A stretch of DNA of 30,004 bases from a virus (Duplodnaviria > Heunggongvirae > Uroviricota > Caudoviricetes), in IMG/VR virus record IMGVR_UViG_2872198387_000003. The stretch is one strand, 5' to 3'. The position numbers and the translations under genes were made by a program. The notes beneath the pieces were generated by a model that was given only the letters and a program-made list of their open reading frames with translations, ran no database searches and was not told the origin of the DNA. The stretch's first letter is position 1. Each line of letters begins with the position of its first letter. Of this stretch, positions 2,823-29,568 are shown in pieces.

Positions 2823-2950
2823 CCAATTTTGTTTGTCCTTTTATAATAAAAAAGTGCTGAAGTTCATTTCATGGAATGAACTTCATAAAAACTCCTACTT
2901 ATTTCTTTTAACAAAGCCATTTGTCCATCGGCTTTAACTGAATGTCCATC

Positions 2951-4657
2951 ATGTTACCGATAAATAATAACTTTTCATTGTCCCAAAATTCTTTTTATAA
3001 CACTATTTCCGGTACATATGCTGATTACTTTTCAGCATGGGATAAATGGGAAAAACAAGCGCTCCCCGGTGAAAATCGGAATGAAGCGGTCTCCCTACTT
3101 AAAGAATGTCTCATCAATCAGTTCAGTGAGCTTCAACTGAATCGTTTAAATCTGTCCTCGCTACCTGACAACTTACCACCTCAAATCACTGTTCTGGAAA
3201 TTACTCAGAATGCCCTAATATCATTACCAGAATTGCCAGCATCGCTGGAATACCTTGACGCCTGTGACAATCGCCTGTCAACACTTCCTGAATTACCCGC
3301 ATCTCTGAAACATCTTGATGTAGATAACAACCAACTAACCATGCTTCCTGAATTGCCTGCATTGCTGGAATATATTAATGCAGATAACAATCAGCTAACC
3401 ATGCTTCCTGAATTACCTACATCGCTGGAAGTGCTCTCAGTAAGAAATAACCAGCTGACATTTCTCCCTGAGTTACCTGAATCACTGGAAGCGCTCGATG
3501 TAAGTACTAATCTTCTGGAAAGCCTACCAGCCGTACCTGTAAGAAATCATCACTCAGAGGAAACCGAGATATTTTTCCGGTGCCGCGAGAATCGCATCAC
3601 ACACATTCCGGAAAATATACTTAGCCTTGATCCGACCTGCACTATCATCCTCGAAGACAATCCTCTGTCCTCACGGATCAGGGAGTCTCTGTCGCAACAA
3701 ACCGCCCAACCGGACTACCACGGCCCACGGATTTACTTCTCCATGAGTGACGGACAACAGAATACACTCCATCGCCCCCTGGCTGATGCCGTGACAGCAT
3801 GGTTCCCGGAAAACAAACAATCTGATGTATCACAGATATGGCATGCTTTTGAACATGAAGAGCACGCCAACACCTTTTCCGCGTTCCTTGACCGCCTTTC
3901 CGATACCGTCTCTGCACGCAATACCTCCGGATTCCGTGAACAGGTCGCTGCATGGCTGGAAAAACTCAGTACCTCTGCAGAGCTTCGACAGCAGTCTTTC
4001 GCTGTTGCTGCTGATGCCACTGAAAGCTGTGAGGACCGTGTCGCGCTCACATGGAACAATCTCCGGAAAACCCTCCTGGTCCATCAGGCATCAGAAGGCC
4101 TTTTCGATAATGATACCGGCGCTCTGCTCTCCCTGGGCAGGGAAATGTTCCGCCTCGAAATTCTGGAGGATATTGCCCGGGATAAAGTCAGAACTCTCCA
4201 TTTTGTGGATGAGATAGAAGTCTACCTGGCCTTCCAGACCATGCTCGCAGAGAAACTTCAGCTCTCCACTGCCGTGAAGGAAATGCGTTTCTATGGCGTG
4301 TCGGGAGTGACAGCAAATGACCTCCGCACTGCCGAAGCCATGGTCAGAAGCCGTGAAGAGAATGAATTTACGGACTGGTTCTCCCTCTGGGGACCATGGC
4401 ATGCTGTACTGAAGCGTACGGAAGCTGACCGCTGGGCGCTGGCAGAAGAGCAGAAATATGAGATGCTGGAGAATGAGTACCCTCAGAGGGTGGCTGACCG
4501 GCTGAAAGCATCAGGTCTGAGCGGTGATGCGGATGCGGAGAGGGAAGCCGGTGCACAGGTGATGCGTGAGACTGAACAGCAGATTTACCGTCAGCTGACT
4601 GACGAGGTACTGGCCCTGCGATTGCCTGAAAACGGCTCACAACTGCACCATTCATAA
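2951..4657 (+). CDS. ipaH: IpaH-family type III secreted E3 ubiquitin ligase (LRR + NEL domains)
   Basis: The N-terminus MLPINNNFSLSQNSFYNTISGTYADYF... is followed by LPELPxSLxxL leucine-rich repeats. The C-terminal domain is the conserved IpaH type, including the catalytic CEDR motif and ...GAQVMRETEQQIYRQLTDEVLALRL. The ORF also opens at ATG 2942; the start at 2951 was chosen by family conservation. Confidence 0.95.
   Translation: MLPINNNFSLSQNSFYNTISGTYADYFSAWDKWEKQALPGENRNEAVSLLKECLINQFSELQLNRLNLSSLPDNLPPQITVLEITQNALISLPELPASLEYLDACDNRLSTLPELPASLKHLDVDNNQLTMLPELPALLEYINADNNQLTMLPELPTSLEVLSVRNNQLTFLPELPESLEALDVSTNLLESLPAVPVRNHHSEETEIFFRCRENRITHIPENILSLDPTCTIILEDNPLSSRIRESLSQQTAQPDYHGPRIYFSMSDGQQNTLHRPLADAVTAWFPENKQSDVSQIWHAFEHEEHANTFSAFLDRLSDTVSARNTSGFREQVAAWLEKLSTSAELRQQSFAVAADATESCEDRVALTWNNLRKTLLVHQASEGLFDNDTGALLSLGREMFRLEILEDIARDKVRTLHFVDEIEVYLAFQTMLAEKLQLSTAVKEMRFYGVSGVTANDLRTAEAMVRSREENEFTDWFSLWGPWHAVLKRTEADRWALAEEQKYEMLENEYPQRVADRLKASGLSGDADAEREAGAQVMRETEQQIYRQLTDEVLALRLPENGSQLHHS
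3224..3523 (+). repeat. five tandem 60-bp units encoding the IpaH LRR modules
   Basis: CTTCCTGAATT(A/G)CC(T/C)GCA..CTGGAA... recurs every 60 bp, giving 20-aa repeats LPELPASLEYLDACDNRLST, LPELPASLKHLDVDNNQLTM and so on. Confidence 0.85.
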
Positions 4658-4699
4658 TCACATCGCATAAACCACAGACCGGACTGACTCCGGAAAAAC

Positions 4700-4721
4700 G
4701 GAGGCCCGCCCCCGGGCCTCC
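4700..4721. terminator. GC-rich hairpin between convergent ipaH and tfa
   Basis: GGAGGCCC-gccccc-GGGCCTCC is an 8-bp perfect stem lying 43 nt after the ipaH stop. There is no clear U-tract, so its role as a terminator is tentative. Confidence 0.35.
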
Positions 4722-4836
4722 CCGGATTCATCCGTTTCCCTGTTCAGCCTGACAGCACGCCCCGGCTGCCGGATGACAGACTCCGCTTCGGTAAGCAAAG
4801 CGGTCTTCTGTGATTCCGCCAGTTGCGGCTTATTCA

Positions 4837-5400
4837 TTACTCAACGTCAAACGCCCGAATTGAAGCCAAATCATCCAGACCGCTCAGCTCCTCTTTCATT
4901 TCACGCTGACGGCGATAAATCTCATCGTTGCGATCGACCTGCGCCTGCACCATTGCTGCCGCCAGTTCTTCCAGTTCCGGCATCGACAGTTTCACCTGCT
5001 GATTATCGGCATCGCTCCACGCCATATGTGTTTGTGCTGTGACAGATTTTGCCAGCATGACTACCGGGGACAGGCGGCCCAGTGAATCGGGACCAGCATT
5101 CCAGATACGACCGTTCCATTCAAACGTGAACAGCTTCGCCTCCTGTTCTGCGCGCCATGCTTCAATTTCCTGACGTCTGGCCTCTCTGGCCGCTTCCAGC
5201 ATTTCTGGTGTCACAGTGAATGGGGCTATCTCACCCCATTTGCCGCTTTGCAGTTCCTGCCAGATTTGCTGACCCGTCGGAGCGACATCATCAGCGGTGG
5301 CTGTGTAGGGGACTGCCTGGTCCCTGTCGTCAAAAAAAACGTCACAGTCTACTGCGCCACTTTCGGTATAACGGGGATTAATGATTTTTTTAATTTCCAC
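4837..5400 (-). CDS. phage tail fibre assembly (chaperone) protein
   Basis: 187 aa from GTG 5400, preceded by GAGGAA. It directly follows a tail-fibre 3' end whose stop overlaps this SD. Acidic C-terminus ...ELEELAAAMVQAQVDRNDEIYRRQREMKEEL. The family call was made by eye. Confidence 0.6.
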   Translation of the reverse strand: MEIKKIINPRYTESGAVDCDVFFDDRDQAVPYTATADDVAPTGQQIWQELQSGKWGEIAPFTVTPEMLEAAREARRQEIEAWRAEQEAKLFTFEWNGRIWNAGPDSLGRLSPVVMLAKSVTAQTHMAWSDADNQQVKLSMPELEELAAAMVQAQVDRNDEIYRRQREMKEELSGLDDLASIRAFDVE

Positions 5401-7198: not shown

Positions 7199-7227
7199 TT
7201 GAAAACCAGAACGGGTGGAATTATAGT
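7199..7227 (+). promoter_or_regulatory. sigma70-type promoter of the rha leader
   Basis: TTGAAA, 17 nt spacer, TATAGT. Homologous in position to the pR'-like promoter of the second module at 19062-19091. Confidence 0.5.
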
Positions 7228-7287
7228 GCATCTGCACCTCATAAAACGGGGGCCGGGCGTGGAAACCCGAACGTTACTCGAGCGCAT

Positions 7288-7310
7288 AGCCGCGCTGAAG
7301 CGGTTTTTTT
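7288..7310 (+). terminator. weak intrinsic terminator in the rha leader
   Basis: AGCCGC-gctgaa-GCGGTT followed by T7. Same position as the stronger terminator of module B. Confidence 0.45.
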
Positions 7311-7338
7311 ATGCGTAATGCACAGCTCCATTCAAATT

Positions 7339-7450
7339 ATGGTGGGATGTGCAGGGCAGTCGCAAGACTGGCCGGGTTCTCGAGTGACCGGTATTTCCAC
7401 CCCTGTACGTCTCACCACCCTTATGGTCGTGGAAAACCTCGGTGGTGAGT
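7339..7450 (+). ncRNA. c4/CI-type structured antisense RNA candidate, copy A
   Basis: Hairpins are CAGTC-GCAA-GACTG, CCGG-gttCTCGAGTGA-CCGG and CTCACCACC-21 nt-GGTGGTGAG. The CTCGAGTGA loop is complementary to TCACTCGAG (7462-7470), which overlaps the rha SD. A diverged copy at 18843-18945 keeps all helices through compensatory changes. Confidence 0.65.
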
Positions 7451-7479
7451 TAATTAACTTATCACTCGAGGATGCCATC

Positions 7480-8021
7480 ATGGCTACTATCCCTGCCCTT
7501 TCTCACCCTGACGTAACCATCGAAAACGGTCGCGCTGTCACTACGTCTGTTGCGGTTGCAGAGTTCTTCCACAAACGACACGACAATGTGTTACGTGCCA
7601 TCGCAAATACTGAATGCTCACCTGAATTTAACGCCCTCAATTTTGAGGACGTCACCTACACCGACACCAAAGGCGAAAAACGTCCAATGTACCAAATCAC
7701 CAAAAACGGCTTCGTTTTCCTGGTGATGGGCTTCACTGGGAAAAAAGCCGCTGCATTCAAAGAGGCCTACATCGCTGATGTTCGACCGCATGGAGGCAGA
7801 ACTGCACCAGAATAATACCCCGTCCGCTGACAAGATGATTCCGGGTAACGGTCGCACTCTGGTTGTGCACTTCGACGAACACGGCAATATCAGATTCACC
7901 GAAACTGTTCCTGACGGTGCACTGGTCTGTACCCTGGATACTTTCCAGTTTTATCTGGAAAAACAGGGGTGGGCTCTTGTAAACCGGAGCGCAATTAAAA
8001 ATATGACCGTAGAGCAGCTGC
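7480..8021 (+). pseudogene. rha: Rha-family phage regulatory protein, frameshifted and interrupted by IS2
   Basis: ATG 7480 follows GAGGA. Motifs VTTSVAVAEFFHKRHDNVLRAI and GFVFLVMGFTGKKAAAFKEAYIA are present. The frame breaks near 7780 and continues in another frame (FDRMEAELHQ...). IS2 sits 4 codons before the original stop (tail at 9358-9371). Confidence 0.75.
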
Positions 8022-8112
8022 TAGACTGGCCCCCTGAATCTCCAGACAACCAGTATCACTTATTTAAGTGATAGTCTTAATACTAGTTTTTAGACTAGTC
8101 ATTGGAGAACAG

Positions 8113-8478
8113 ATGATTGATGTCTTAGGGCCGGAGAAACGCAGACGGCGTACCACACAGGAAAAGATCGCAATTGTTCAGCAGAGCTTTGAACCGGGGA
8201 TGACGGTCTCCCTCGTTGCCCGGCAACATGGTGTAGCAGCCAGCCAGTTATTTCTCTGGCGTAAGCAATACCAGGAAGGAAGTCTTACTGCTGTGGCCGC
8301 CGGAGAACAGGTTGTTCCTGCCTCTGAACTTGCTGCCGCCATGAAGCAGATTAAAGAACTCCAGCGCCTGCTCGGCAAGAAAACGATGAAAAATGAACTC
8401 CTCAAAGAAGCCGTTGAATATGGACGGGCAAAAAAGTGGATAGCGCACGCGCCCTTATTGCCCGGGGATGGGGAGTAA
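8113..8478 (+). CDS. insC: IS2 OrfA (InsC)
   Basis: 121 aa [26 protein letters not shown]... The ORF-track start at 8068 is an upstream extension. Confidence 0.9.
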
Positions 8479-9341
8479 GCTTAGTCAGCCGTTGTCTCCG
8501 GGTGTCGCGTGCGCAGTTGCACGTCATTCTCAGACGAACCGATGACTGGATGGATGGCCGCCGCAGTCGTCACACTGATGATACGGATGTGCTTCTCCGT
8601 ATACACCATGTTATCGGAGAGCTGCCCACGTATGGTTATCGTCGGGTATGGGCGCTGCTTCGCAGACAGGCAGAACTTGATGGTATGCCTGCGATCAATG
8701 CCAAACGTGTTTACCGGCTCATGCGCCAGAATGCGCTGTTGCTTGAGCGAAAACCTGCTGTACCGCCATCGAAACGGGCACATACAGGCAGAGTGGCCGT
8801 GAAAGAAAGCAATCAGCGATGGTGCTCTGACGGGTTCGAGTTCTGCTGTGATAACGGAGAGAGACTGCGTGTCACGTTCGCGCTGGACTGCTGTGATCGT
8901 GAGGCACTGCACTGGGCGGTGACTACCGGCGGCTTCAACAGTGAAACAGTACAGGACGTCATGCTGGGAGCAGTGGAACGCCGCTTCGGCAACGATCTTC
9001 CGTCGTCTCCAGTGGAGTGGCTGACGGATAATGGTTCATGCTACCGGGCTAATGAAACACGCCAGTTCGCCCGGATGTTGGGACTTGAACCGAAGAACAC
9101 GGCGGTGCGGAGTCCGGAGAGTAACGGAATAGCAGAGAGCTTCGTGAAAACGATAAAGCGTGACTACATCAGTATCATGCCCAAACCAGACGGGTTAACG
9201 GCAGCAAAGAACCTTGCAGAGGCGTTCGAGCATTATAACGAATGGCATCCGCATAGTGCGCTGGGTTATCGCTCGCCACGGGAATATCTGCGGCAGCGGG
9301 CTTGTAATGGGTTAAGTGATAACAGATGTCTGGAAATATAG
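8436..9341 (+). CDS. insD: IS2 OrfB (InsD, DDE transposase)
   Basis: 301-aa ORF overlapping orfA in the -1 frame, with a DDE region ...WCSDGF..., ...LTDNGSCY..., ...SNGIAESF... Confidence 0.9.
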
Positions 9342-9417
9342 GGGCAAATCCAGCTGCTAAGTATTAAATAACTTTCCTGAGATTTCCTTTGTAAGACTGT
9401 TTATTAAGGAGGCTTCC

Positions 9418-11687: not shown

Positions 11688-11730
11688 TGAGGTGTACTGG
11701 CAATAGCGGACACTACCATTTGTTCTTTTT

Positions 11731-12549
11731 TTAAGCAGCCATCTGATGATATTTTTCCCTGAAGGCTGCCGGGGAGATATTCCCCAGACGAGAGTGACGA
11801 CGCTGACGATTGTAGAAAATCTCAATGTATTCCCGTATTACTGAGGTGGCTTCATCCCGGTTATTAAAACGATAGTGGCTCAGGCTCTCATTTTTCAGCG
11901 TTCCCCAGAAGCTTTCCATCGGAGCGTTGTCGTAACAGTTACCTTTACGCGACATTGATGTTTTCAGACCAGACTGCTCCTGTATGACCCGGTAATCGTA
12001 TGCGCAGTACTGTGAACCTCGATCAGAGTGGTGGATTAGCCCGGCAGGTGGGCGCTGGCTCCTGAGCGCCATAAACAGGGCTTTACCTGTCAGCTCTTTT
12101 GTCATGCGCTCTCCCATGGCGTAGCCGACAATTTCACACGTATAAACATCTTTGATGCCAGCGAGGTACAACCATCCCTCCTGTGTGGCAACATACGTCA
12201 GGTCCGCCACCCAGACCTGATTTGGTGCTGTAGGAGCGAACGTCTGGTTCAGCAGATTTGGCGCAACTGGCAGATTGTGGTTCGGGTTCGTAGTCGCTCT
12301 GAACTTGCGTTTCTGCTTACAGCGTAGCCTCAGCTCCTTACGAAGACGTGCCAGTCGGTCACGACCAACGATGATGCCATTCTCTGCCAGCTCCGTCTGG
12401 AGCCGCCGGGTTCCATATGTTTCGCGAGTGCGGATATGTGCCACCTTAATCTCCAGTTTTAGCCGCTCATCACTTTGTTTTCTGTCTGAGGGTTCATGCT
12501 GTACCCAGTTGTAATAACCGCTCCTGGATACACCAAATACCTGACACAT
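11731..12549 (-). CDS. IS600 OrfB
   Basis: 272-aa ORF with one substitution relative to the other copies (EATSVIREY versus EAISVIREY). Confidence 0.9.
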   Translation of the reverse strand: MCQVFGVSRSGYYNWVQHEPSDRKQSDERLKLEIKVAHIRTRETYGTRRLQTELAENGIIVGRDRLARLRKELRLRCKQKRKFRATTNPNHNLPVAPNLLNQTFAPTAPNQVWVADLTYVATQEGWLYLAGIKDVYTCEIVGYAMGERMTKELTGKALFMALRSQRPPAGLIHHSDRGSQYCAYDYRVIQEQSGLKTSMSRKGNCYDNAPMESFWGTLKNESLSHYRFNNRDEATSVIREYIEIFYNRQRRHSRLGNISPAAFREKYHQMAA

Positions 12550-12584
12550 CGCTTCAATGGGAAATTGTTGTCGCCATTGTTCGA

Positions 12585-12887
12585 TTAACGCGTATTTTTC
12601 AGCGACTCCTGTGCAAAATACGCTGTTGCTTTTTTTAATATATCTCGCTCAAGGCGAGCTTCATTTAACGCCTTACGCAGTTGCAGAATTTCAGATTCCA
12701 GTTCAGCCACCGTGCGGGAACCAGGAGTACCGAGCCCTTTTCTGGCGGCGGTAACCCATTGTCCTAAAGTGCCTTCAGGAAGAGATAATCGGGAAGCGCC
12801 TTCACTGATCGAAAGTTGATTTTCAAGAACCGTTCTGACAGCTTCGGCTTTGAACTCTTTAGAGTAACGTTGGGTTTTTCTGCTCAT
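12585..12887 (-). CDS. IS600 OrfA
   Basis: Identical 100-aa ORF. Confidence 0.9.
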   Translation of the reverse strand: MSRKTQRYSKEFKAEAVRTVLENQLSISEGASRLSLPEGTLGQWVTAARKGLGTPGSRTVAELESEILQLRKALNEARLERDILKKATAYFAQESLKNTR

Positions 12888-12960
12888 TATTAGCTCCTTC
12901 TGATGCCATTCTATTTCAGGAAGGAGTGTCCGTTAAACTCAGGCTACCTCAGTATTCCCT

Positions 12961-13665: not shown

Positions 13666-13932
13666 ATGCGTAAAGCCCGTTTTACTGAGCATCAGATCAT
13701 CGCCGTGATTAAGTCGGTTGAAGCCGGACGAACTGTTAAAGATGTCTGCCGGGAGGCCGGTATCTCTGAAGCCACCTACTACAACTGGAAGTCCAGATAC
13801 GGTGGCATGGAGGCTTCTGATATTAAAAAGATTAAAGAGCTTGAGGACGAGAACCGCCGTCTCAAACAGATGTTTGCCGACCTGAGCCTGGAGAACCGGG
13901 CGCTGAAGGACGTTATCGAAAAAAAGCTTTAA
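13666..13932 (+). CDS. IS3-family OrfA (HTH + leucine zipper)
   Basis: 88 aa MRKARFTEHQIIAVIKSVEAGRTVKDVCREAGISEATYYNWKSRYGG... Confidence 0.85.
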   Translation: MRKARFTEHQIIAVIKSVEAGRTVKDVCREAGISEATYYNWKSRYGGMEASDIKKIKELEDENRRLKQMFADLSLENRALKDVIEKKL

Positions 13933-14777
13933 AACCAGCCTGTAAGCGTGAGCTGGTCACTCATCTGATAACGACATTCGGACTCAGTATCCGTCAGGCC
14001 TGCCGGAGTCTGAACCTGAGCAGAACGGTTTACCATTACCGCCCGGATACCACGCGTGATGAACCCGTTATTGTCGCGTTGCAGGCAGTGGCAGAGCGAT
14101 ACCCACGATACGGTTTTCCGAAACTCTTCCAGGTTCTGCGGCGACAGGGATACCCATGGAATCACAAAAGGATCCACCGTATTTACTGTCTGCTGAAGCT
14201 GAATTTTCGCCGTAAGGGCAAACAACGGTTGCCGGTGCGTAATCCCTCGCCACTGGCCACGTCGGAAGCGCTGAACCAGAGTTGGTCTGTCGATTTTATG
14301 CATGATGCCCTGGTCTGTGGCCGTCGTTTTCGTACGTTCAATGTCGTTGATGACTTTAACCGTGAGGCGTTGTCGATTGAAATCGACCTGAATCTGCCAG
14401 CTCTACGCGTGGTCCGTGTACTCGACAGGATCGCGGCAAACCGTGGCTATCCGGTCAAGCTGCGCATGGATAATGGTCCGGAATTTATCTCCCTGACACT
14501 GGCTGAATGGGCAGAGAAACATGCAGTAAAACTGGAGTTTATCCAGCCGGGTAAGCCGACGCAGAACGCTTTCATTGAGCGCTTTAACCGGACATACCGT
14601 ACAGAAATACTCGATTTTTATCTGTTCAGAACGCTGAATGAAGTGCGGGAAATCACGGAAAAATGGTTGTCAGAATATAACTGTGAACGCCCGCATGAAT
14701 CACTGAACAATATGACGCCAGAGGAATATCGACAACACCATTATTTGGCCGGGATCTCAAAAAATGCCTGGAACTAA
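13926..14777 (+). CDS. IS3-family OrfB (DDE), expressed as an OrfAB fusion by -1 frameshift
   Basis: The frame is open from about 13917: ...KPACKRELVTHLITTFGLSIRQACRSL...WSVDFMHD...RMDNGPEF...NAFIERFN.... The first ATG in this frame is at 14079. Confidence 0.8.
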   Translation, partial: ALKPACKRELVTHLITTFGLSIRQACRSLNLSRTVYHYRPDTTRDEPVIVALQAVAERYPRYGFPKLFQVLRRQGYPWNHKRIHRIYCLLKLNFRRKGKQRLPVRNPSPLATSEALNQSWSVDFMHDALVCGRRFRTFNVVDDFNREALSIEIDLNLPALRVVRVLDRIAANRGYPVKLRMDNGPEFISLTLAEWAEKHAVKLEFIQPGKPTQNAFIERFNRTYRTEILDFYLFRTLNEVREITEKWLSEYNCERPHESLNNMTPEEYRQHHYLAGISKNAWN

Positions 14778-14827
14778 AACGGGTCTATTTACAGCTAAGC
14801 CGCTACGGTCTACGAGGACTTTAGGCA

Positions 14828-15035
14828 ACAACGTCCGATTAAACCATTTACTCACCTGCTCACCGTAACCGTTCTTCATGAGACGCAGACCATCGAACAC
14901 CATAGCGTCATCACCGTCAGCGCCTCTACGGGTCTCTACAAGCGCCATAAAGTCAGCCAATATAAAACCATAGGCCCCATCGACCAGAGGCACACAGCGG
15001 TCACTATGAGCGTTCTTGATGCTCTTACCGGGTAG
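14828..15035 (-). pseudogene. tyrosine integrase, middle fragment
   Basis: LPGKSIKNAHSDRCVPLVDGAYGFILADFMALVE...VSKWFNRTLL(PKVLVDRSG). This is the typical ...R.VPL segment after the catalytic Arg. It is cut by IS911 at 15036. Confidence 0.7.
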
Positions 15036-15107
15036 TGAAGTGGCACACTGAATTTGGCCACCTGAACAGAGGTGATATGCTCACCTCAGAACAACACAGG
15101 TGCTCCA

Positions 15108-16276
<1,169 letters not shown>

Positions 16277-16284
16277 CCACTTCA

Positions 16285-16357
16285 AGTAGTAGACGCCGTT
16301 ACGCTGGTAGAGATAGTAGACTGCTGGAAGTTTGTGACTACTGGATAGCTGAATCAT
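16285..16357 (-). pseudogene. tyrosine integrase, N-terminal 24 codons
   Basis: MIQLSSSHKLPAVYYLYQRNGVYY is an integrase-type N-terminus (...NGVYY(FR)). It starts 115 nt downstream of tRNA-Gly on the same strand and is cut by IS911. Confidence 0.55.
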
Positions 16358-16471
16358 ATGTCTGTATGCCCTGAGAGGGTTACACAGTGGGTTACAGTAA
16401 GTAACTCTGCAAGGAGGCTTAAAGCCGTATCCCTTAGGATTCAGTAGGTTGGAGTACTTTAAGAAAGGTCA

Positions 16472-16894: not shown

Positions 16895-17543
16895 CTTTCA
16901 AGTGTCCATGTCTGCTATTCGCCTCGCGATACAGCTTTGCGAAGCTTACCGGAATTGAAGCAGTTTATGTGCAAAAATGCAAGAACTTTTTTAAAGCTGC
17001 ATCAACCTTTCCACCAGTTTATCTCTGCGAACAACAAACCAACCATTGGCTCTCGCCAGTTCCAGCCATGACTCAAGGGAAATAACAATATCATCATCCC
17101 GTAACTGAATTGTGGAAACAGTGACACCGCCTCTCTGATAACAGAGAACTCGCGTGTCGTAACTTTTCTGGCATGAAACTGGCGTTGACGGATCCCTTTG
17201 ACTGAAATAGCAGTCTTCCAGTTTTTCGAACACATCCCACGCCTGATCGGTTTCGAGCATTTTGCCGTGGCGTGCTGCGCCTCGTTCTGTCCAGAGGATG
17301 AGGGAGCGGGCTTTGGGTGAAACTGGATTTTGTGAGTAGTTTAAAGCGACCCGCAATTCTTTAAGGTCATTACCAACAACTTTGAAAAAGTGTTTCCCTT
17401 CAACGAAGCGTACTTTGTTCTCATGATGATTCTGGCGAATACGCACCGGCTCAGTGCCGTAAAGCTGCGCCAAAAGTTCGGTGGTAATAACAGGAATCTG
17501 TGAGGTGTACTGGCAATAGCGGACACTACCATTTGTTCTTTTT

Positions 17544-18362
17544 TTAAGCAGCCATCTGATGATATTTTTCCCTGAAGGCTGCCGGGGAGATATTCCCCAG
17601 ACGAGAGTGACGACGCTGACGATTGTAGAAAATCTCAATGTATTCCCGTATTACTGAGATGGCTTCATCCCGGTTATTAAAACGATAGTGGCTCAGGCTC
17701 TCATTTTTCAGCGTTCCCCAGAAGCTTTCCATCGGAGCGTTGTCGTAACAGTTACCTTTACGCGACATTGATGTTTTCAGACCAGACTGCTCCTGTATGA
17801 CCCGGTAATCGTATGCGCAGTACTGTGAACCTCGATCAGAGTGGTGGATTAGCCCGGCAGGTGGGCGCTGGCTCCTGAGCGCCATAAACAGGGCTTTACC
17901 TGTCAGCTCTTTTGTCATGCGCTCTCCCATGGCGTAGCCGACAATTTCACACGTATAAACATCTTTGATGCCAGCGAGGTACAACCATCCCTCCTGTGTG
18001 GCAACATACGTCAGGTCCGCCACCCAGACCTGATTTGGTGCTGTAGGAGCGAACGTCTGGTTCAGCAGATTTGGCGCAACTGGCAGATTGTGGTTCGGGT
18101 TCGTAGTCGCTCTGAACTTGCGTTTCTGCTTACAGCGTAGCCTTAGCTCCTTACGAAGACGTGCCAGTCGGTCACGACCAACGATGATGCCATTCTCTGC
18201 CAGCTCCGTCTGGAGCCGCCGGGTTCCATATGTTTCGCGAGTGCGGATATGTGCCACCTTAATCTCCAGTTTTAGCCGCTCATCACTTTGTTTTCTGTCT
18301 GAGGGTTCATGCTGTACCCAGTTGTAATAACCGCTCCTGGATACACCAAATACCTGACACAT
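17544..18362 (-). CDS. IS600 OrfB
   Basis: Identical 272-aa ORF. Confidence 0.9.
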   Translation of the reverse strand: MCQVFGVSRSGYYNWVQHEPSDRKQSDERLKLEIKVAHIRTRETYGTRRLQTELAENGIIVGRDRLARLRKELRLRCKQKRKFRATTNPNHNLPVAPNLLNQTFAPTAPNQVWVADLTYVATQEGWLYLAGIKDVYTCEIVGYAMGERMTKELTGKALFMALRSQRPPAGLIHHSDRGSQYCAYDYRVIQEQSGLKTSMSRKGNCYDNAPMESFWGTLKNESLSHYRFNNRDEAISVIREYIEIFYNRQRRHSRLGNISPAAFREKYHQMAA

Positions 18363-18397
18363 CGCTTCAATGGGAAATTGTTGTCGCCATTGTTCGA

Positions 18398-18700
18398 TTA
18401 ACGCGTATTTTTCAGCGACTCCTGTGCAAAATACGCTGTTGCTTTTTTTAATATATCTCGCTCAAGGCGAGCTTCATTTAACGCCTTACGCAGTTGCAGA
18501 ATTTCAGATTCCAGTTCAGCCACCGTGCGGGAACCAGGAGTACCGAGCCCTTTTCTGGCGGCGGTAACCCATTGTCCTAAAGTGCCTTCAGGAAGAGATA
18601 ATCGGGAAGCGCCTTCACTGATCGAAAGTTGATTTTCAAGAACCGTTCTGACAGCTTCGGCTTTGAACTCTTTAGAGTAACGTTGGGTTTTTCTGCTCAT
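18398..18700 (-). CDS. IS600 OrfA
   Basis: Identical 100-aa ORF. Confidence 0.9.
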   Translation of the reverse strand: MSRKTQRYSKEFKAEAVRTVLENQLSISEGASRLSLPEGTLGQWVTAARKGLGTPGSRTVAELESEILQLRKALNEARLERDILKKATAYFAQESLKNTR

Positions 18701-18842
18701 TATTAGCTCCTTCTGATGCCATTCTATTTCAGGAAGGAGTGTCCGTTAAACTCAGGCTACCTCACTGGTTATGGGTGATCGGGGAGAGAGTTTCAACAGA
18801 GATTTGAGTGGTCATAACGATAACTCCGTACATTTGGAAATT

Positions 18843-18945
18843 ATCGCCACCGACGACGCCAATCGAACTGGTGGCGAACTGTGCAGGGTTGGCGTAACCG
18901 GGTACGGAAACCGGCGAGCCTTTCGGCTCCCCCACACAGCCCGCC
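18843..18945 (-). ncRNA. c4/CI-type structured antisense RNA candidate, copy B
   Basis: Minus-strand hairpins are GAGCC-GAAA-GGCTC, CCGG-tTTCCGTAC-CCGG and TCGCCACC-18 nt-GGTGGCGA. The TCCGTAC loop is complementary to GTACGGA (18825-18831), which overlaps the ant SD GGAG. This copy aligns with copy A at 7339-7450. Confidence 0.65.
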
Positions 18946-18978
18946 ATAAATCGCGAATGTGACTGTGCAAACGATATG

Positions 18979-19000
18979 AAAAAAGACGCGGGCGCGTCTC
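18979..19000 (-). terminator. tR'-like intrinsic terminator of the late leader
   Basis: The minus strand reads AGACGC-gccc-GCGTCT followed by T6, about 65 nt downstream of the predicted pR' start. Confidence 0.8.
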
Positions 19001-19061
19001 ATATCGCTCCGTAAACATCCGGGACGCCAATCCCGACGCCAGATTTTGCTGGCGCGTGAGG

Positions 19062-19091
19062 AATATAGCCCCGGATAACAGATTGAGTCAA
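19062..19091 (-). promoter_or_regulatory. pR'-like late promoter
   Basis: The minus strand reads TTGACT, 18 nt spacer, TATATT. The -35 element contains the Q stop codon TGA, the usual lambdoid position for pR'/qut. Confidence 0.65.
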
Positions 19092-19642
19092 CAAACGGTT
19101 TTTAGATCCCCGGAAGAGAATGCATCACGCATCGGTAGATAGAGCATATATTCAGCAAGATTTAGCCATACATCTACCCGACTGCAGCACGTCCGGAAAC
19201 ACCACTCAGGGTGTGCGTCATTCAGCAATTCAGCCATTTTACGCTTAGTCATCCCCCGCCCTTCATACCGTTGCCGGAGGACACTAATCAATCCAGGATG
19301 CTCTGCCAGCACCTCACTTATGACTCTATCAATACATAACGCCTCTGCATCAGTACAATGCGCCAGCCAGGTCTTTTGCTTGCCATTGATCATCTCTCGC
19401 AAAAACGCTTCCAGCTCAGGTTTCTCTATTCCCGCTTTTTTCATCCTGCGCAGGGCTTCATTGACGGCTGTTTTCGTCAATTTTTTGGATGCCAGCAACT
19501 GGTTAAACATATTTCCCGTCTTACCGCCGCCAATATACGACCAGCGCCCCCACATGCGCAGTTTTCCCTGAATCCAGACACTTTCCAGCGTGGTGAGACG
19601 AAGGTGTTCCCCGCTTTTGCCTGTATTTGTTGGGTAAATCAT
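19088..19642 (-). CDS. late-gene antiterminator Q (Phage_antitermQ type)
   Basis: 184 aa from MIYPTNTGKSGEHLRLTTLESVWIQGKLRMWGRWSYIGGGKTGNMFNQLL.... The start overlaps the upstream stop (ATGA). The ORF-track start at 19762 overlaps the preceding gene and was rejected. Confidence 0.8.
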   Translation of the reverse strand: MIYPTNTGKSGEHLRLTTLESVWIQGKLRMWGRWSYIGGGKTGNMFNQLLASKKLTKTAVNEALRRMKKAGIEKPELEAFLREMINGKQKTWLAHCTDAEALCIDRVISEVLAEHPGLISVLRQRYEGRGMTKRKMAELLNDAHPEWCFRTCCSRVDVWLNLAEYMLYLPMRDAFSSGDLKTVC

Positions 19643-21864: not shown

Positions 21865-22020
21865 TTACTCCTCAGGTTCGTAAGCTGTGAAGACAGCGAC
21901 CTCCGTCTGGCCGGTTCGGATTCGTACCTCGCAGAGGTCTTTCCTCGTTACCAGTGCCGTCACTATGACGGTTAAACAGATGACGATCAGGGCGATTAAC
22001 ATCGCCTTTTGCTGCTTCAT
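21865..22020 (-). CDS. hok: Hok/Gef-family type I toxin
   Basis: 51 aa MKQQKAMLIALIVICLTVIVTALVTRKDLCEVRIRTGQTEVAVFTAYEPEE (HokD/RelF-like). An in-frame upstream ATG at 22077 gives a 70-aa Mok-like form, as in mokC/hokC. Confidence 0.9.
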   Translation of the reverse strand: MKQQKAMLIALIVICLTVIVTALVTRKDLCEVRIRTGQTEVAVFTAYEPEE

Positions 22021-22068
22021 AGCCTGCTTCTCCTTGCCTTTCGGCACGTAAGAGGCTAACCTACATTT

Positions 22069-22143
22069 GTGAGACATAGATTGGGCCTCAGATTAATGTT
22101 AAGCGTCTTGCAGGACGCGTAATGTTAACTGGGGCTTTTCTCT
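22069..22143 (+). ncRNA. sok: Sok-like antisense RNA
   Basis: Plus-strand promoter TTGCCT, 17 nt spacer, TAACCT (22034-22062). The transcript GTGAGACATAGATTGGGCC...ACTGGGGCTTTTCTCTG is antisense to the mok start region and parallels remembered R1 Sok (..GACATAGGG...ACGGGGCTATCTTCTTTCTG). Confidence 0.6.
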
Positions 22144-22358
22144 GTCTGCCTTACAGTGGCATGCCCGAGGCAGACAGCCTCAAGCACCCGCAGCAATCTT
22201 ACCGATACCGATAAGAAAACGCTATTTTTTATTGCCAGCACCTTCTATCCAGGCTAATTTATCTGCGTCAGAACGGCGCAATGCGCTCGCCTGAGATACG
22301 TTTACTTGCCATGGTAACAACAGGTAACGGCAATTGCTGTTTCTGTTTTGTTTCCTTC

Positions 22359-25774: not shown

Positions 25775-26612
25775 GGTCTGTTACCCCCTGAAGCCTAGCG
25801 GGATCGCACTGTCCGGCAACGAGACGGTGTTAACCTGTCGGAGCAACGTCTCAGGCCGAACACCTTTCGGCGCGAACAGACCCTGGTATTCATTGGCGAT
25901 GCTGTGTCGAATCACCTGCTCAGGTGTAAAACCCTGCTGACGGAATTTTTCCAGTTCCCGTATCGCCCCGTTAGCGCCCAGCTCCGTTCGAATCGGTTTT
26001 CGCAATGCCTGCCTGAACTGGACCCACTCATGCCAGAGTGTTTCTGGCAACCAGTCGGGCAGATCAACTGACAACGGGTCAAATTTTTTCTGGCGAACAG
26101 CCCCACCGATAACCAGAATTCCCTGCTCGGTGTGCCTTGCGATATCACTGCGCCGCAAGACACATATCCCGGTTTCAACAGCACCGATTTTGAGCAGTGA
26201 TTTCTGTCGCGGAGAATTTCGGTCAAGCTCGATCCCACACCGGACACCGTTCCTGTCAGTCACGACGATATCAATCCGCCCTCCGCAACCGTCACCACGC
26301 TCTGGCACCGGATACTCACGACAGACATCCAGGCCAGCAGCCTGCAACGCAACCACCGCAGAATTACAAAATTCCGCTGCAGTACCGCCAGATAATCTCC
26401 CCTCAAGCACTCCAGCCACAAAATCCCGAAACTCCCTTCCGGAAGGGAAGGGTTTGGGATGGGTTAGATCTGTTTTTAGATCTTTATCTGTATCTTTATT
26501 AGTTGCCTTTGTGTTGGCATCTAGACTGGCCCCCTGAATCTCCAGACAACCAGTATCACTTATTTAAGTGATAGTCTTAATACTAGTTTTTAGACTAGTC
26601 ATTGGAGAACAG

Positions 26613-26978
26613 ATGATTGATGTCTTAGGACCGGAGAAACGCAGACGGCGTACCACACAGGAAAAGATCGCAATTGTTCAGCAGAGCTTTGAACCGGGGA
26701 TGACGGTCTCCCTCGTTGCCCGGCAACATGGTGTAGCAGCCAGCCAGTTATTTCTCTGGCGTAAGCAATACCAGGAAGGAAGTCTTACTGCTGTGGCCGC
26801 CGGAGAACAGGTTGTTCCTGCCTCTGAACTTGCTGCCGCCATGAAGCAGATTAAAGAACTCCAGCGCCTGCTCGGCAAGAAAACGATGAAAAATGAACTC
26901 CTCAAAGAAGCCGTTGAATATGGACGGGCAAAAAAGTGGATAGCGCACGCGCCCTTATTGCCCGGGGATGGGGAGTAA
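26613..26978 (+). CDS. insC: IS2 OrfA (InsC)
   Basis: Same 121-aa product as copy 1. Confidence 0.9.
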
Positions 26979-27841
26979 GCTTAGTCAGCCGTTGTCTCCG
27001 GGTGTCGCGTGCGCAGTTGCACGTCATTCTCAGACGAACCGATGACTGGATGGATGGCCGCCGCAGTCGTCACACTGATGATACGGATGTGCTTCTCCGT
27101 ATACACCATGTTATCGGAGAGCTGCCCACGTATGGTTATCGTCGGGTATGGGCGCTGCTTCGCAGACAGGCAGAACTTGATGGTATGCCTGCGATCAATG
27201 CCAAACGTGTTTACCGGCTCATGCGCCAGAATGCGCTGTTGCTTGAGCGAAAACCTGCTGTACCGCCATCGAAACGGGCACATACAGGCAGAGTGGCCGT
27301 GAAAGAAAGCAATCAGCGATGGTGCTCTGACGGGTTCGAGTTCTGCTGTGATAACGGAGAGAGACTGCGTGTCACGTTCGCGCTGGACTGCTGTGATCGT
27401 GAGGCACTGCACTGGGCGGTGACTACCGGCGGCTTCAACAGTGAAACAGTACAGGACGTCATGCTGGGAGCAGTGGAACGCCGCTTCGGCAACGATCTTC
27501 CGTCGTCTCCAGTGGAGTGGCTGACGGATAATGGTTCATGCTACCGGGCTAATGAAACACGCCAGTTCGCCCGGATGTTGGGACTTGAACCGAAGAACAC
27601 GGCGGTGCGGAGTCCGGAGAGTAACGGAATAGCAGAGAGCTTCGTGAAAACGATAAAGCGTGACTACATCAGTATCATGCCCAAACCAGACGGGTTAACG
27701 GCAGCAAAGAACCTTGCAGAGGCGTTCGAGCATTATAACGAATGGCATCCGCATAGTGCGCTGGGTTATCGCTCGCCACGGGAATATCTGCGGCAGCGGG
27801 CTTGTAATGGGTTAAGTGATAACAGATGTCTGGAAATATAG
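26936..27841 (+). CDS. insD: IS2 OrfB (InsD)
   Basis: Same 301-aa ORF as copy 1. Confidence 0.9.
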
Positions 27842-27858
27842 GGGCAAATCCAGCATCA

Positions 27859-27961: not shown

Positions 27962-28368
27962 CTTTTCCTGCGGCTGATTTTTTGGTTAATTTTTCTCTGA
28001 CAGATGCCAGATCTTCCTCAATCCGAAGATGCATCCATTCGTCGCCGTTATCACAAAAAAACTCCCGCAAGGATGGTTCAACATCAACCCATCGCTCGTT
28101 AGTCAGACGGGCAATTTTTGCCAACCTGTTTTTGGGTATTGGCTTTCCTGTTTGCCAGTAATTGAACATCAGCAACAAATACGCGCCGTGCTCCTCTGCT
28201 GACAAATGCATGGTGTCAGCCAGGTAATCAGCTATGTACAGTTGCATGTATGGTAATGCGGCCATAATTGCCCCGTATGATGCTACCCGGTTGCTTAGAA
28301 TAAGTGAGGTAGCCTGAGTTTAACGGACACTCCTTCCTGAAATAGAATGGCATCAGAAGGAGCTAATA

Positions 28369-28671
28369 ATGAGCAGAAAAACCCAACGTTACTCTAAAGA
28401 GTTCAAAGCCGAAGCTGTCAGAACGGTTCTTGAAAATCAACTTTCGATCAGTGAAGGCGCTTCCCGATTATCCCTTCCTGAAGGCACTTTAGGACAATGG
28501 GTTACCGCCGCCAGAAAAGGGCTCGGTACTCCTGGTTCCCGCACGGTGGCTGAACTGGAATCTGAAATTCTGCAACTGCGTAAGGCGTTAAATGAAGCTC
28601 GCCTTGAGCGAGATATATTAAAAAAAGCAACAGCGTATTTTGCACAGGAGTCGCTGAAAAATACGCGTTAA
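28369..28671 (+). CDS. IS600 OrfA
   Basis: Identical 100-aa product, with synonymous differences at the DNA level. Confidence 0.9.
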   Translation: MSRKTQRYSKEFKAEAVRTVLENQLSISEGASRLSLPEGTLGQWVTAARKGLGTPGSRTVAELESEILQLRKALNEARLERDILKKATAYFAQESLKNTR

Positions 28672-28706
28672 TCGAACAATGGCGACAACAATTTCCTATT
28701 GAAGCG

Positions 28707-29525
28707 ATGTGTCAGGTATTTGGTGTATCCAGGAGCGGTTATTACAACTGGGTACAGCATGAACCCTCAGACAGAAAACAAAGTGATGAGCGGCTAAAAC
28801 TGGAGATTAAGGTGGCACATATCCGCACTCGCGAAACATATGGAACCCGGCGGCTCCAGACGGAGCTGGCAGAGAATGGCATCATCGTTGGTCGTGACCG
28901 ACTGGCACGTCTTCGTAAGGAGCTGAGGCTACGCTGTAAGCAGAAACGCAAGTTCAGAGCGACTACGAACCCGAACCACAATCTGCCAGTTGCGCCAAAT
29001 CTGCTGAACCAGACGTTCGCTCCTACAGCACCAAATCAGGTCTGGGTGGCGGACCTGACGTATGTTGCCACACAGGAGGGATGGTTGTACCTCGCTGGCA
29101 TCAAAGATGTTTATACGTGTGAAATTGTCGGCTACGCCATGGGAGAGCGCATGACAAAAGAGCTGACAGGTAAAGCCCTGTTTATGGCGCTCAGGAGCCA
29201 GCGCCCACCTGCCGGGCTAATCCACCACTCTGATCGAGGTTCACAGTACTGCGCATACGATTACCGGGTCATACAGGAGCAGTCTGGTCTGAAAACATCA
29301 ATGTCGCGTAAAGGTAACTGTTACGACAACGCTCCGATGGAAAGCTTCTGGGGAACGCTGAAAAATGAGAGCCTGAGCCACTATCGTTTTAATAACCGGG
29401 ATGAAGCCATCTCAGTAATACGGGAATACATTGAGATTTTCTACAATCGTCAGCGTCGTCACTCTCGTCTGGGGAATATCTCCCCGGCAGCCTTCAGGGA
29501 AAAATATCATCAGATGGCTGCTTAA
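28707..29525 (+). CDS. IS600 OrfB
   Basis: Identical 272-aa ORF. Confidence 0.9.
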   Translation: MCQVFGVSRSGYYNWVQHEPSDRKQSDERLKLEIKVAHIRTRETYGTRRLQTELAENGIIVGRDRLARLRKELRLRCKQKRKFRATTNPNHNLPVAPNLLNQTFAPTAPNQVWVADLTYVATQEGWLYLAGIKDVYTCEIVGYAMGERMTKELTGKALFMALRSQRPPAGLIHHSDRGSQYCAYDYRVIQEQSGLKTSMSRKGNCYDNAPMESFWGTLKNESLSHYRFNNRDEAISVIREYIEIFYNRQRRHSRLGNISPAAFREKYHQMAA

Positions 29526-29568
29526 AAAAAGAACAAATGGTAGTGTCCGCTATTGCCAGTACACCTCA

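Follow-up and report, generated by a model that had tools for sequence, protein, structure and literature searches.

A likely IsrK-C4-antirepressor cassette of Shigella/Escherichia coli, related to P1/P7 immI, upstream of a probable late promoter

Does an antirepressor gene lying directly behind a Q-type antiterminator gene belong to the Q-dependent late transcription unit of its prophage, or does it carry a switch of its own? The question is raised by IMG/VR record IMGVR_UViG_2872198387_000003 (Caudoviricetes), a stretch of 30,004 nucleotides (nt) hereafter called the window, whose positions serve as coordinates throughout. On its minus strand, a Q-like gene is followed by a promoter-like site, a short terminated leader, a C4-type antisense RNA and an ORF6N-type antirepressor gene (ant), now interrupted by the insertion sequence (IS) IS600. 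We call this arrangement copy B, copy A being a second cassette at 7199-8071. A preliminary description of the locus read the promoter and terminator behind Q as pR' and tR', so that the antirepressor would require both Q-mediated read-through and relief from the antisense loop. We consider it likely that the region is instead the Shigella/E. coli version of a lambdoid cassette made up of IsrK, C4 and an antirepressor gene, which is related to the P1/P7 immI system and was inserted upstream of the probable late promoter. The features first described are real and their antisense reading is right, but the wiring through Q, pR' and tR' is probably wrong.

The leader of copy B extends from about 19055 to 18979 (77 nt) and matches the Rfam isrK model over its full length, with 75.6 bits against a gathering threshold of 50; the c4-a1b1 model matches over 19068-19016 (52.2 bits, gathering threshold 46.7). 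The leader folds with a z-score of -4.9. Two hairpins at its 5' end precede a target left single-stranded and then an intrinsic terminator, identified by a terminator scan, whose stem (19000-18983) is followed by a T-run (a U-run in the RNA). Downstream, at 18951-18867, the Rfam C4 covariance model (RF01695) is matched from position 1 to 87 of 87 with 77.6 bits (gathering threshold 45). The RNA of about 100 nt announced in the preliminary description is indeed structured and belongs to the C4 family, its length being 85 nt, and the long closing stem enclosing two hairpins is recovered in the minimum free energy (MFE) fold. Its supposed homology to copy A is borne out by the same covariance search, in which the C4 of copy A scores 76.7 bits.

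The specificity loop of this C4 RNA, UUUCCGUAC (18910-18902), is complementary to two sites in the same transcript. The upstream, b1-type target UACGGAG (19013-19007, with TACGGA at 19013-19008) lies in the leader and ends 6 nt ahead of the terminator stem, not 8-10 nt as had been stated for both copies. The downstream, b2-type target GUACGGAG (18831-18824) coincides with the start signals of ant: GTACGGA (18831-18825) overlaps the Shine-Dalgarno (SD) sequence GGAG (18827-18824), as had been noticed, 9 nt before the ant ATG at 18815. A further contact involves the conserved, single-stranded a' segment of C4, ACGCCAACCC (18895-18886), the complement of an a1-type site GGGAUUGGCG (19034-19025) in leader hairpin 2; RNAduplex gives this duplex -18.3 kcal/mol, and the long-range pairing also appears in the MFE fold of the whole leader. 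Helix b-I, its counterpart in the Salmonella prophage Gifsy-1, has been validated by compensatory mutations (PMC4825925).

To judge the loop-target complementarity we assembled cassettes by a pattern search of viral contigs together with Q-anchored loci, and obtained 142 cassettes with 82 distinct sequences and 24 loop sequences. Nearly all classes carry the loop's reverse complement at two fixed places, one in the gap between leader hairpin 2 and the terminator (6-10 nt ahead of the terminator stem in nearly all loop classes), the other at the SD of the gene that follows or immediately ahead of that SD. Whole-RNA duplex energies were noisy, given G+C-rich stems, and were replaced by contiguous pairing in position-restricted windows. 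Over the 24 loop classes, cognate versus non-cognate pairing is 7.4 versus 4.95 at the upstream site and 8.67 versus 5.22 at the SD site (permutation p = 2e-5 each). Complementarity and Rfam matches exceed chance: three curated covariance models pass, and different sequences repeat the pattern in the 24 classes and in copy A, where the loop GUUCUCGAGUGA faces the targets ACUCGAG (7276-7282) and UCACUCGAGGA (7462-7472). Antisense gating, with a C4 loop complementary to both a leader site and the antirepressor SD site, is thus strongly supported by Rfam and covariation, and the proposal of a c4/immI-type loop controlling the antirepressor holds.

Is the segment over C4 an RNA, or a message? The closest published locus invites the second answer. 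In Gifsy-1, the order is antQ - PisrK - isrK (77 nt, with its own terminator) - orf45/STnc1160 - anrP - isrJ (Hershko-Shalev et al. 2016, PMC4825925), so the placement of the module, initially regarded as unusual, has the same gene order there. Carried over as such, the Gifsy-1 model would have an orf45 mRNA over C4 coupled to ant, with IsrK opening the orf45 ribosome-binding site in trans and C4 playing no antisense role. Start- and stop-codon mutants, 30S toeprinting and compensatory mutants back this model in Gifsy-1 (PMC4825925), and in the window, too, a frame begins with a conserved AUG (18947) in the 5' end of C4. However, that frame runs without a stop into ant, in phase via ATG 18815, which leaves no AUGA-type coupling. 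Nor is it conserved among the 82 distinct cassettes, where its length varies between 15 codons and open-ended: it closes inside the first 20 codons in 16 of them, after 20-39 codons and at a distance from the ant start in 33, and close to the ant start in just 18. Hairpin 1 of C4, on the other hand, keeps 5/5 pairs across 17 distinct sequences with differing base pairs. Compensatory changes in the hairpin and a reading frame that is not conserved show the region over C4 to be RNA rather than a conserved open reading frame (ORF); the Gifsy-1 authors themselves remarked on nucleotide but no amino-acid conservation of orf45 (PMC4825925). The coupled-translation model also leaves unexplained why the loop covaries with both the SD and the leader sites, and we regard it as doubtful for this locus.

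What, then, drives the cassette? The promoter-like site in front of the leader, TTGACT (19091-19086) and TATATT (19067-19062) at 18-nt spacing, matches the sigma-70 consensus at 10/12 positions and was found by a promoter scan. The TGA stop of Q (19090-19088) falls within its -35 element, and this overlap, the leader with its TACGGA and the terminator are all present on the minus strand as originally reported. The Q-like gene itself spans 19642-19088, the longest ORF reaching 19762 and the family profile beginning at the ATG at 19642. Its product matches DUF1133 (5e-108) and, weakly, PF06530 (26.6 bits) in Pfam, as well as PHROG 753, 'anti-termination protein Q-like'. A sequence search of the Protein Data Bank (PDB) gives Q21 (6p18/6jnx) as the nearest solved structures, a weak match (E 0.013) that makes it a distant Q21 relative. 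The window matches Shigella flexneri, where Q is 100% identical.

The preliminary description amounts to the following: TTGACT-18-TATATT would be pR', the leader terminator tR', and ant the first late gene, expressed when Q-modified polymerase reads through and C4 is relieved. Such a promoter, which starts at the Q stop and yields a short RNA with a terminator, does occupy the classical pR'/tR' position (10.1101/651190), and a -10-like CAAAAU lies at leader +7 to +12. In addition, a transcriptional fusion to anrP in a Gifsy-1 lysogen increased 8-fold when IsrK was supplied in trans, an effect that could include AntQ feedback (PMC4825925). Against this, identical promoter, leader and terminator sequences accompany C4-ant in non-Q contexts. 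In O157/Stx1 prophages, TTGACn-18-TATATT, leader and terminator with C4-ant lie in the nin region (NinE - cassette - NinG ... Q), separated by several genes from Q and its late promoter, and CAAAAU is equally conserved there; in Stx prophages, the cassette located in nin has the loop UCGGUUUC with targets GAGACCG and GAAACC. Promoter and leader stand at the same offset behind NinE/methylase, NinB, other ant genes, integrase-like genes and many others, and a DUF1133 Q is found upstream in only 16 of about 117 C4-anchored viral contigs. Copy A (plus strand; isrK 7234-7310, C4 7335-7422) has a promoter-like TTGAAA-17-TATAGT and no Q gene upstream. The site at 19091-19062 therefore appears to be intrinsic to the cassette and equivalent to PisrK, and its occurrence in non-Q contexts speaks against the pR'/tR' assignment.

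Evidence from lysogens points the same way. In Gifsy-1, PisrK sustains a basal level of anrP transcription, the long transcript being translationally silent, and processing of the read-through transcript yields the stable RNA STnc1160 (PMC4825925). Lysogens contain IsrK, STnc1160 and IsrJ in abundance whatever the condition tested, with lytic genes silent (PMC7067206). Since STnc1160 is abundant and anrP is transcribed at a basal level in lysogens, Q is not needed for read-through to the antirepressor gene, contrary to what had been supposed.

The distribution of the cassette is wide. A near match to 19110-18765 is present in 752 of 5426 complete E. coli genomes (about 14%) and in 244 phage records, mostly Stx phages. 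Downstream genes are of antirepressor type in almost all cases (ORF6N, Ant/BRO, Rha); in copy A, a Rha-family gene follows, frameshifted (7480-7815, 7778-8071) and abutted by an IS2-like element (8040-9400). Loop and both targets can be shared between genera, as in one Salmonella locus (L231) where they are the same as in copy B. The IsrK-C4-antirepressor unit is thus portable, a mobile cassette that brings its promoter along and exists in many immunity specificities. We also observed a Salmonella prophage (L207) with two cassettes, at 790-976 and 4088-4268, whose loops, UCGGUGAU in a nin-like region and UUCCUUUUUC after Q, each have matching upstream and SD targets.

If the promoter behind Q belongs to the cassette, where is the late promoter? 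We compared 82 loci whose Q is 87-96% identical. The synteny of Q, promoter, RNA and ant envisaged at the outset holds in 32 of them, which carry the cassette at a fixed distance, while over C4-anchored contigs the cassette sits mostly elsewhere. The other 50 loci have no cassette, a further argument against pR'/tR', and their Q proteins differ in the last ~8 residues. There, the Q stop is directly followed by another conserved element ending in a strong terminator, and in the window, as in phage pPE4 and E. coli CFS3292, a homologous element lies right behind the ant stop: phages with the cassette keep this unit after ant. The element can be described as TTGnnn-(16-18)-TT[G/C]AAT-(4-6)-TAnGCT, an architecture found at -3 from the Q stop in 48 of the 50 cassette-less loci and 835-891 nt past Q, just after ant, in 29 of 30 cassette-bearing ones. 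It has 78 matches in 1.2 Mb (both strands) and a single one in the whole window, at 16982-16943 (TTGCAT-17-TTCAAT-5-TAAGCT, the last hexamer being a second -10-like element). An intrinsic terminator follows at 16895-16871, formed by GAACCCGC-UUUAU-GCGGGUU and a U-run; the terminator scan misses it because the U-run is partly absorbed into the stem, and folding (z -3.96) confirms it. This is the second terminator of the preliminary description, correctly placed ahead of the tRNA array.

More distant relatives show the same association. Q homologues of 56-65% identity in Klebsiella, Enterobacter, Citrobacter, Buttiauxella and others have this layout overlapping the Q stop and then a terminator, and we found no isrK/C4 after Q in these other genera. 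Among 19 species-level Q loci, the cassette follows Q in Salmonella only. Phage Rac-SA53 has TTGATT-17-TATCTT-5-TAAGAT, then toxin and lysis genes, and in intact relatives the lysis genes come after the Q-linked unit, not directly after the promoter and leader equivalent to 19091-18979. A promoter, a second -10-like element and a terminator directly after Q define a Q-dependent cassette (10.1101/651190); because the unit at 16982-16871 has this layout, it is probably pR'/tR', with 16895-16871 as candidate tR', and hence a candidate late promoter/terminator of the DUF1133 Q family. The IsrK-C4-ant cassette would then probably have been inserted between the last Q codons and this unit, with ant upstream of the late leader and not gated by it. 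On these grounds, we think it very unlikely that 19091-18979 is the late promoter and terminator region. An alternative candidate matters for the expression of Q-dependent toxin and lysis genes in Rac/Gifsy-like prophages. As an aside, Rac-SA53 (L230) carries pertussis-like toxin genes eplBA between its DUF1133-type Q and lysis genes (3537-5223), in the place that stx takes in Stx phages.

The position of the unit recalls IsrJ. The 5' ends of IsrK and IsrJ are 837 nt apart in LT2, compared with about 842 nt here once the IS is removed and 838-854 nt in two Salmonella loci, and a terminated unit of IsrJ-like size occupies the post-ant position in the window. Identity with IsrJ of Gifsy-1 is nevertheless not claimed: Rfam isrJ gives no match in the window, in L207 or in L231, even at permissive E-values. 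A literature search for a defined pR' of a Rac-type Q returned nothing.

How might the cassette work? The constitutive promoter at 19091-19062 would make the short, terminated IsrK and, by partial read-through, a long transcript, as shown in the homologue. C4 would be released from the long transcript by processing, also shown in the homologue. Its variable loop UUUCCGUAC would pair with GUACGGAG over the ant SD, as the covariation suggests, and this pairing may block translation of the ORF6N antirepressor, as in P1/P7. Free IsrK, which carries UACGGAG and the a1 site for ACGCCAACCC, could titrate C4 and relieve the block on ant: with a second target and an a1 site it can compete for C4, and such competition would explain the activation by IsrK in trans in Gifsy-1, where anrP translation rises 139-fold (PMC4825925). 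The loop sequence would set immunity specificity, of which many exist. The decoy role of IsrK is one that we infer, and it competes with the published remodelling model.

C4 could in principle also act on the leader. Like the CI RNA of phage P4, it would pair with the nascent target just upstream of the terminator, raise termination and so autoregulate read-through into C4 and ant. In nearly all classes the upstream target is fixed 6-10 nt before the terminator stem, and structural homology of IsrK to P4 seqA was noted by authors who already discussed a P4-CI/seqA-like termination role for Gifsy-1 STnc1160 (PMC4825925). In the same study, however, constitutive STnc1160 enhanced IsrK-dependent toxicity and did not reduce it, and we consider this additional layer unlikely.

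Several observations weigh against the interpretation of a C4-gated cassette upstream of the late promoter. In copy B, the upstream pairing is short, with 6 Watson-Crick pairs and one G-U. Promoter activity, C4 processing and repression of ant are extrapolated to this locus from homologues. The published Gifsy-1 model accounts for activation differently, through remodelling of the long transcript by IsrK and translational coupling of orf45 to anrP, and IsrK toxicity was not countered by constitutive STnc1160 (PMC4825925). The -10-like CAAAAU at +7 to +12 could in principle be a sigma-dependent pause site. High AntQ levels reportedly suppress termination globally, so some effect of Q on the IsrK terminator may exist. 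Finally, the Q-linked unit has weak hexamers (TTCAAT lacks the A at position 2) and was not listed by the promoter scan, and it shows no match to Rfam isrJ, the small RNA (sRNA) found after anrP in Gifsy-1.

In the window itself, the switch is no longer functional as a protein switch. The 5' fragment of ant (18815-18765, 17 codons) ends at the target duplication of IS600 (17501-18764, 1264 bp, terminal inverted repeats TGAGGT..., orfA 18700-18398, orfB 18362-17544), and the 3' fragment lies at 17497-16991. The 3-bp duplication at 18767-18765 and 17500-17498 reads CAG on the minus strand and CTG on the plus strand. Deleting IS600 and one repeat copy restores an in-frame ORF6N protein of 185 amino acids (aa) ending at 16991, in agreement with the split ORF6N/Ant gene and CTG duplication first recorded; intact orthologues exist in pPE4 and in E. 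coli and Salmonella loci. Because IS600 splits ant after codon 17, the switch of copy B is defunct and only the two RNAs could still be made. Beyond the terminator at 16895-16871, a tRNA search identifies four tRNAs, Met(CAU)-Arg(UCU)-Thr(UGU)-Gly(UCC), at 16782-16472. Late genes were sought further on, and 13900-16470 yielded IS911/IS3-type elements and integrase fragments only, with ORFs that have no Pfam or PHROG matches: the late (lysis/structural) region has been lost and replaced by IS elements. For the Shigella window the switch is thus a fossil, with its antirepressor interrupted and its late genes gone.

IS600 is present in four copies of 99.8-100% identity (490-1753, 11688-12951, 17501-18764 and 28305-29568) and an IS2-like element in two (8040-9400 and 26540-27854), making this a heavily IS-ridden prophage. 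An IpaH-type effector gene at 2942-4657 (plus strand), with LRR_TTSS and NEL E3 ligase domains, is consistent with a Shigella origin. Rfam matches on the minus strand comprise CssrB (151.6 bits, 2631-2813), isrN (156 bits, 13931-14073) and sok (118 bits, 22015-22189), the last beside a hok-like ORF.

A broader reading would join these threads: IsrK would be the a1b1 decoy of C4, the Gifsy-1 switch and P1 immI would form one portable hetero-immune family, and the late unit of DUF1133 Q would be an undescribed one with the cassette upstream of it. We hold this joint proposal to be quite possible, somewhat short of probable. If true, dozens of loop specificities have spread through lambdoid prophages, and early transcription would continue past Q into the cassette, where it could contribute to the expression of the antirepressor upon induction.

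The arrangement as such is already known, from curated RNA families and from the published Gifsy-1 locus; the motifs c4 and c4-a1b1 have been on record since 2010 (Weinberg et al. 2010, PMC2864571; Rfam RF01695/RF03163). As originally stated, the claim re-finds a known RNA family and locus and adds little. What the comparison contributes, of modest use to specialists, is the mobility of the cassette, another candidate for the late promoter of the DUF1133 Q family, and a tie between the work on IsrK of Gifsy-1, in which P1 c4 goes uncited, and the P1 immI paradigm. In the window as in the isrK locus of Gifsy-1, a Q-like gene of the DUF1133 family has a promoter at its stop codon and is followed by a terminated IsrK of 77 nt, by ~85 nt that give a processed RNA there and match C4 here, and by an ORF6N-type antirepressor gene. 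The window differs in that orf45 ends in an AUGA overlap in Gifsy-1, whereas the frame of the window is fused in phase to ant, and in that its ant is split by IS600, its late genes are gone and no Rfam isrJ follows ant.

For the immI region of P1/P7, Citron and Schuster reportedly gave in 1990 the order P51 - a1 b1 - c4 - a2 b2 - icd - ant1/2. Both systems hold an antisense RNA and its target in one transcript, with complementary sites upstream and downstream, the downstream site covering the ribosome-binding site; in both, the loop defines hetero-immunity and the output is an antirepressor. Unlike P1/P7, the window presents a lambdoid context and a leader that stops at an intrinsic terminator and would build up as the sRNA IsrK. 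P1/P7 also have a coupled icd, whereas no separate ORF stands between C4 and ant in the window and b2 lies on the ant SD itself. The antirepressors of IsrK/C4 cassettes, unlike those of P1/P7 immI, belong to various families (ORF6N, Ant/BRO, Rha). The P4 CI RNA with seqA/seqC is likewise a small RNA processed from a transcript that holds complementary sites on either side of it, but its output is transcription termination upstream of the replication genes, while here the downstream site overlaps an SD. With the Q-dependent late cassettes of lambdoid phages, lastly, the region shares a promoter (19091-19062) in the classical place after Q and a short terminated RNA (10.1101/651190); it differs in that this promoter shows no evolutionary linkage to Q, whereas the unit at 16982-16871 stays with Q.

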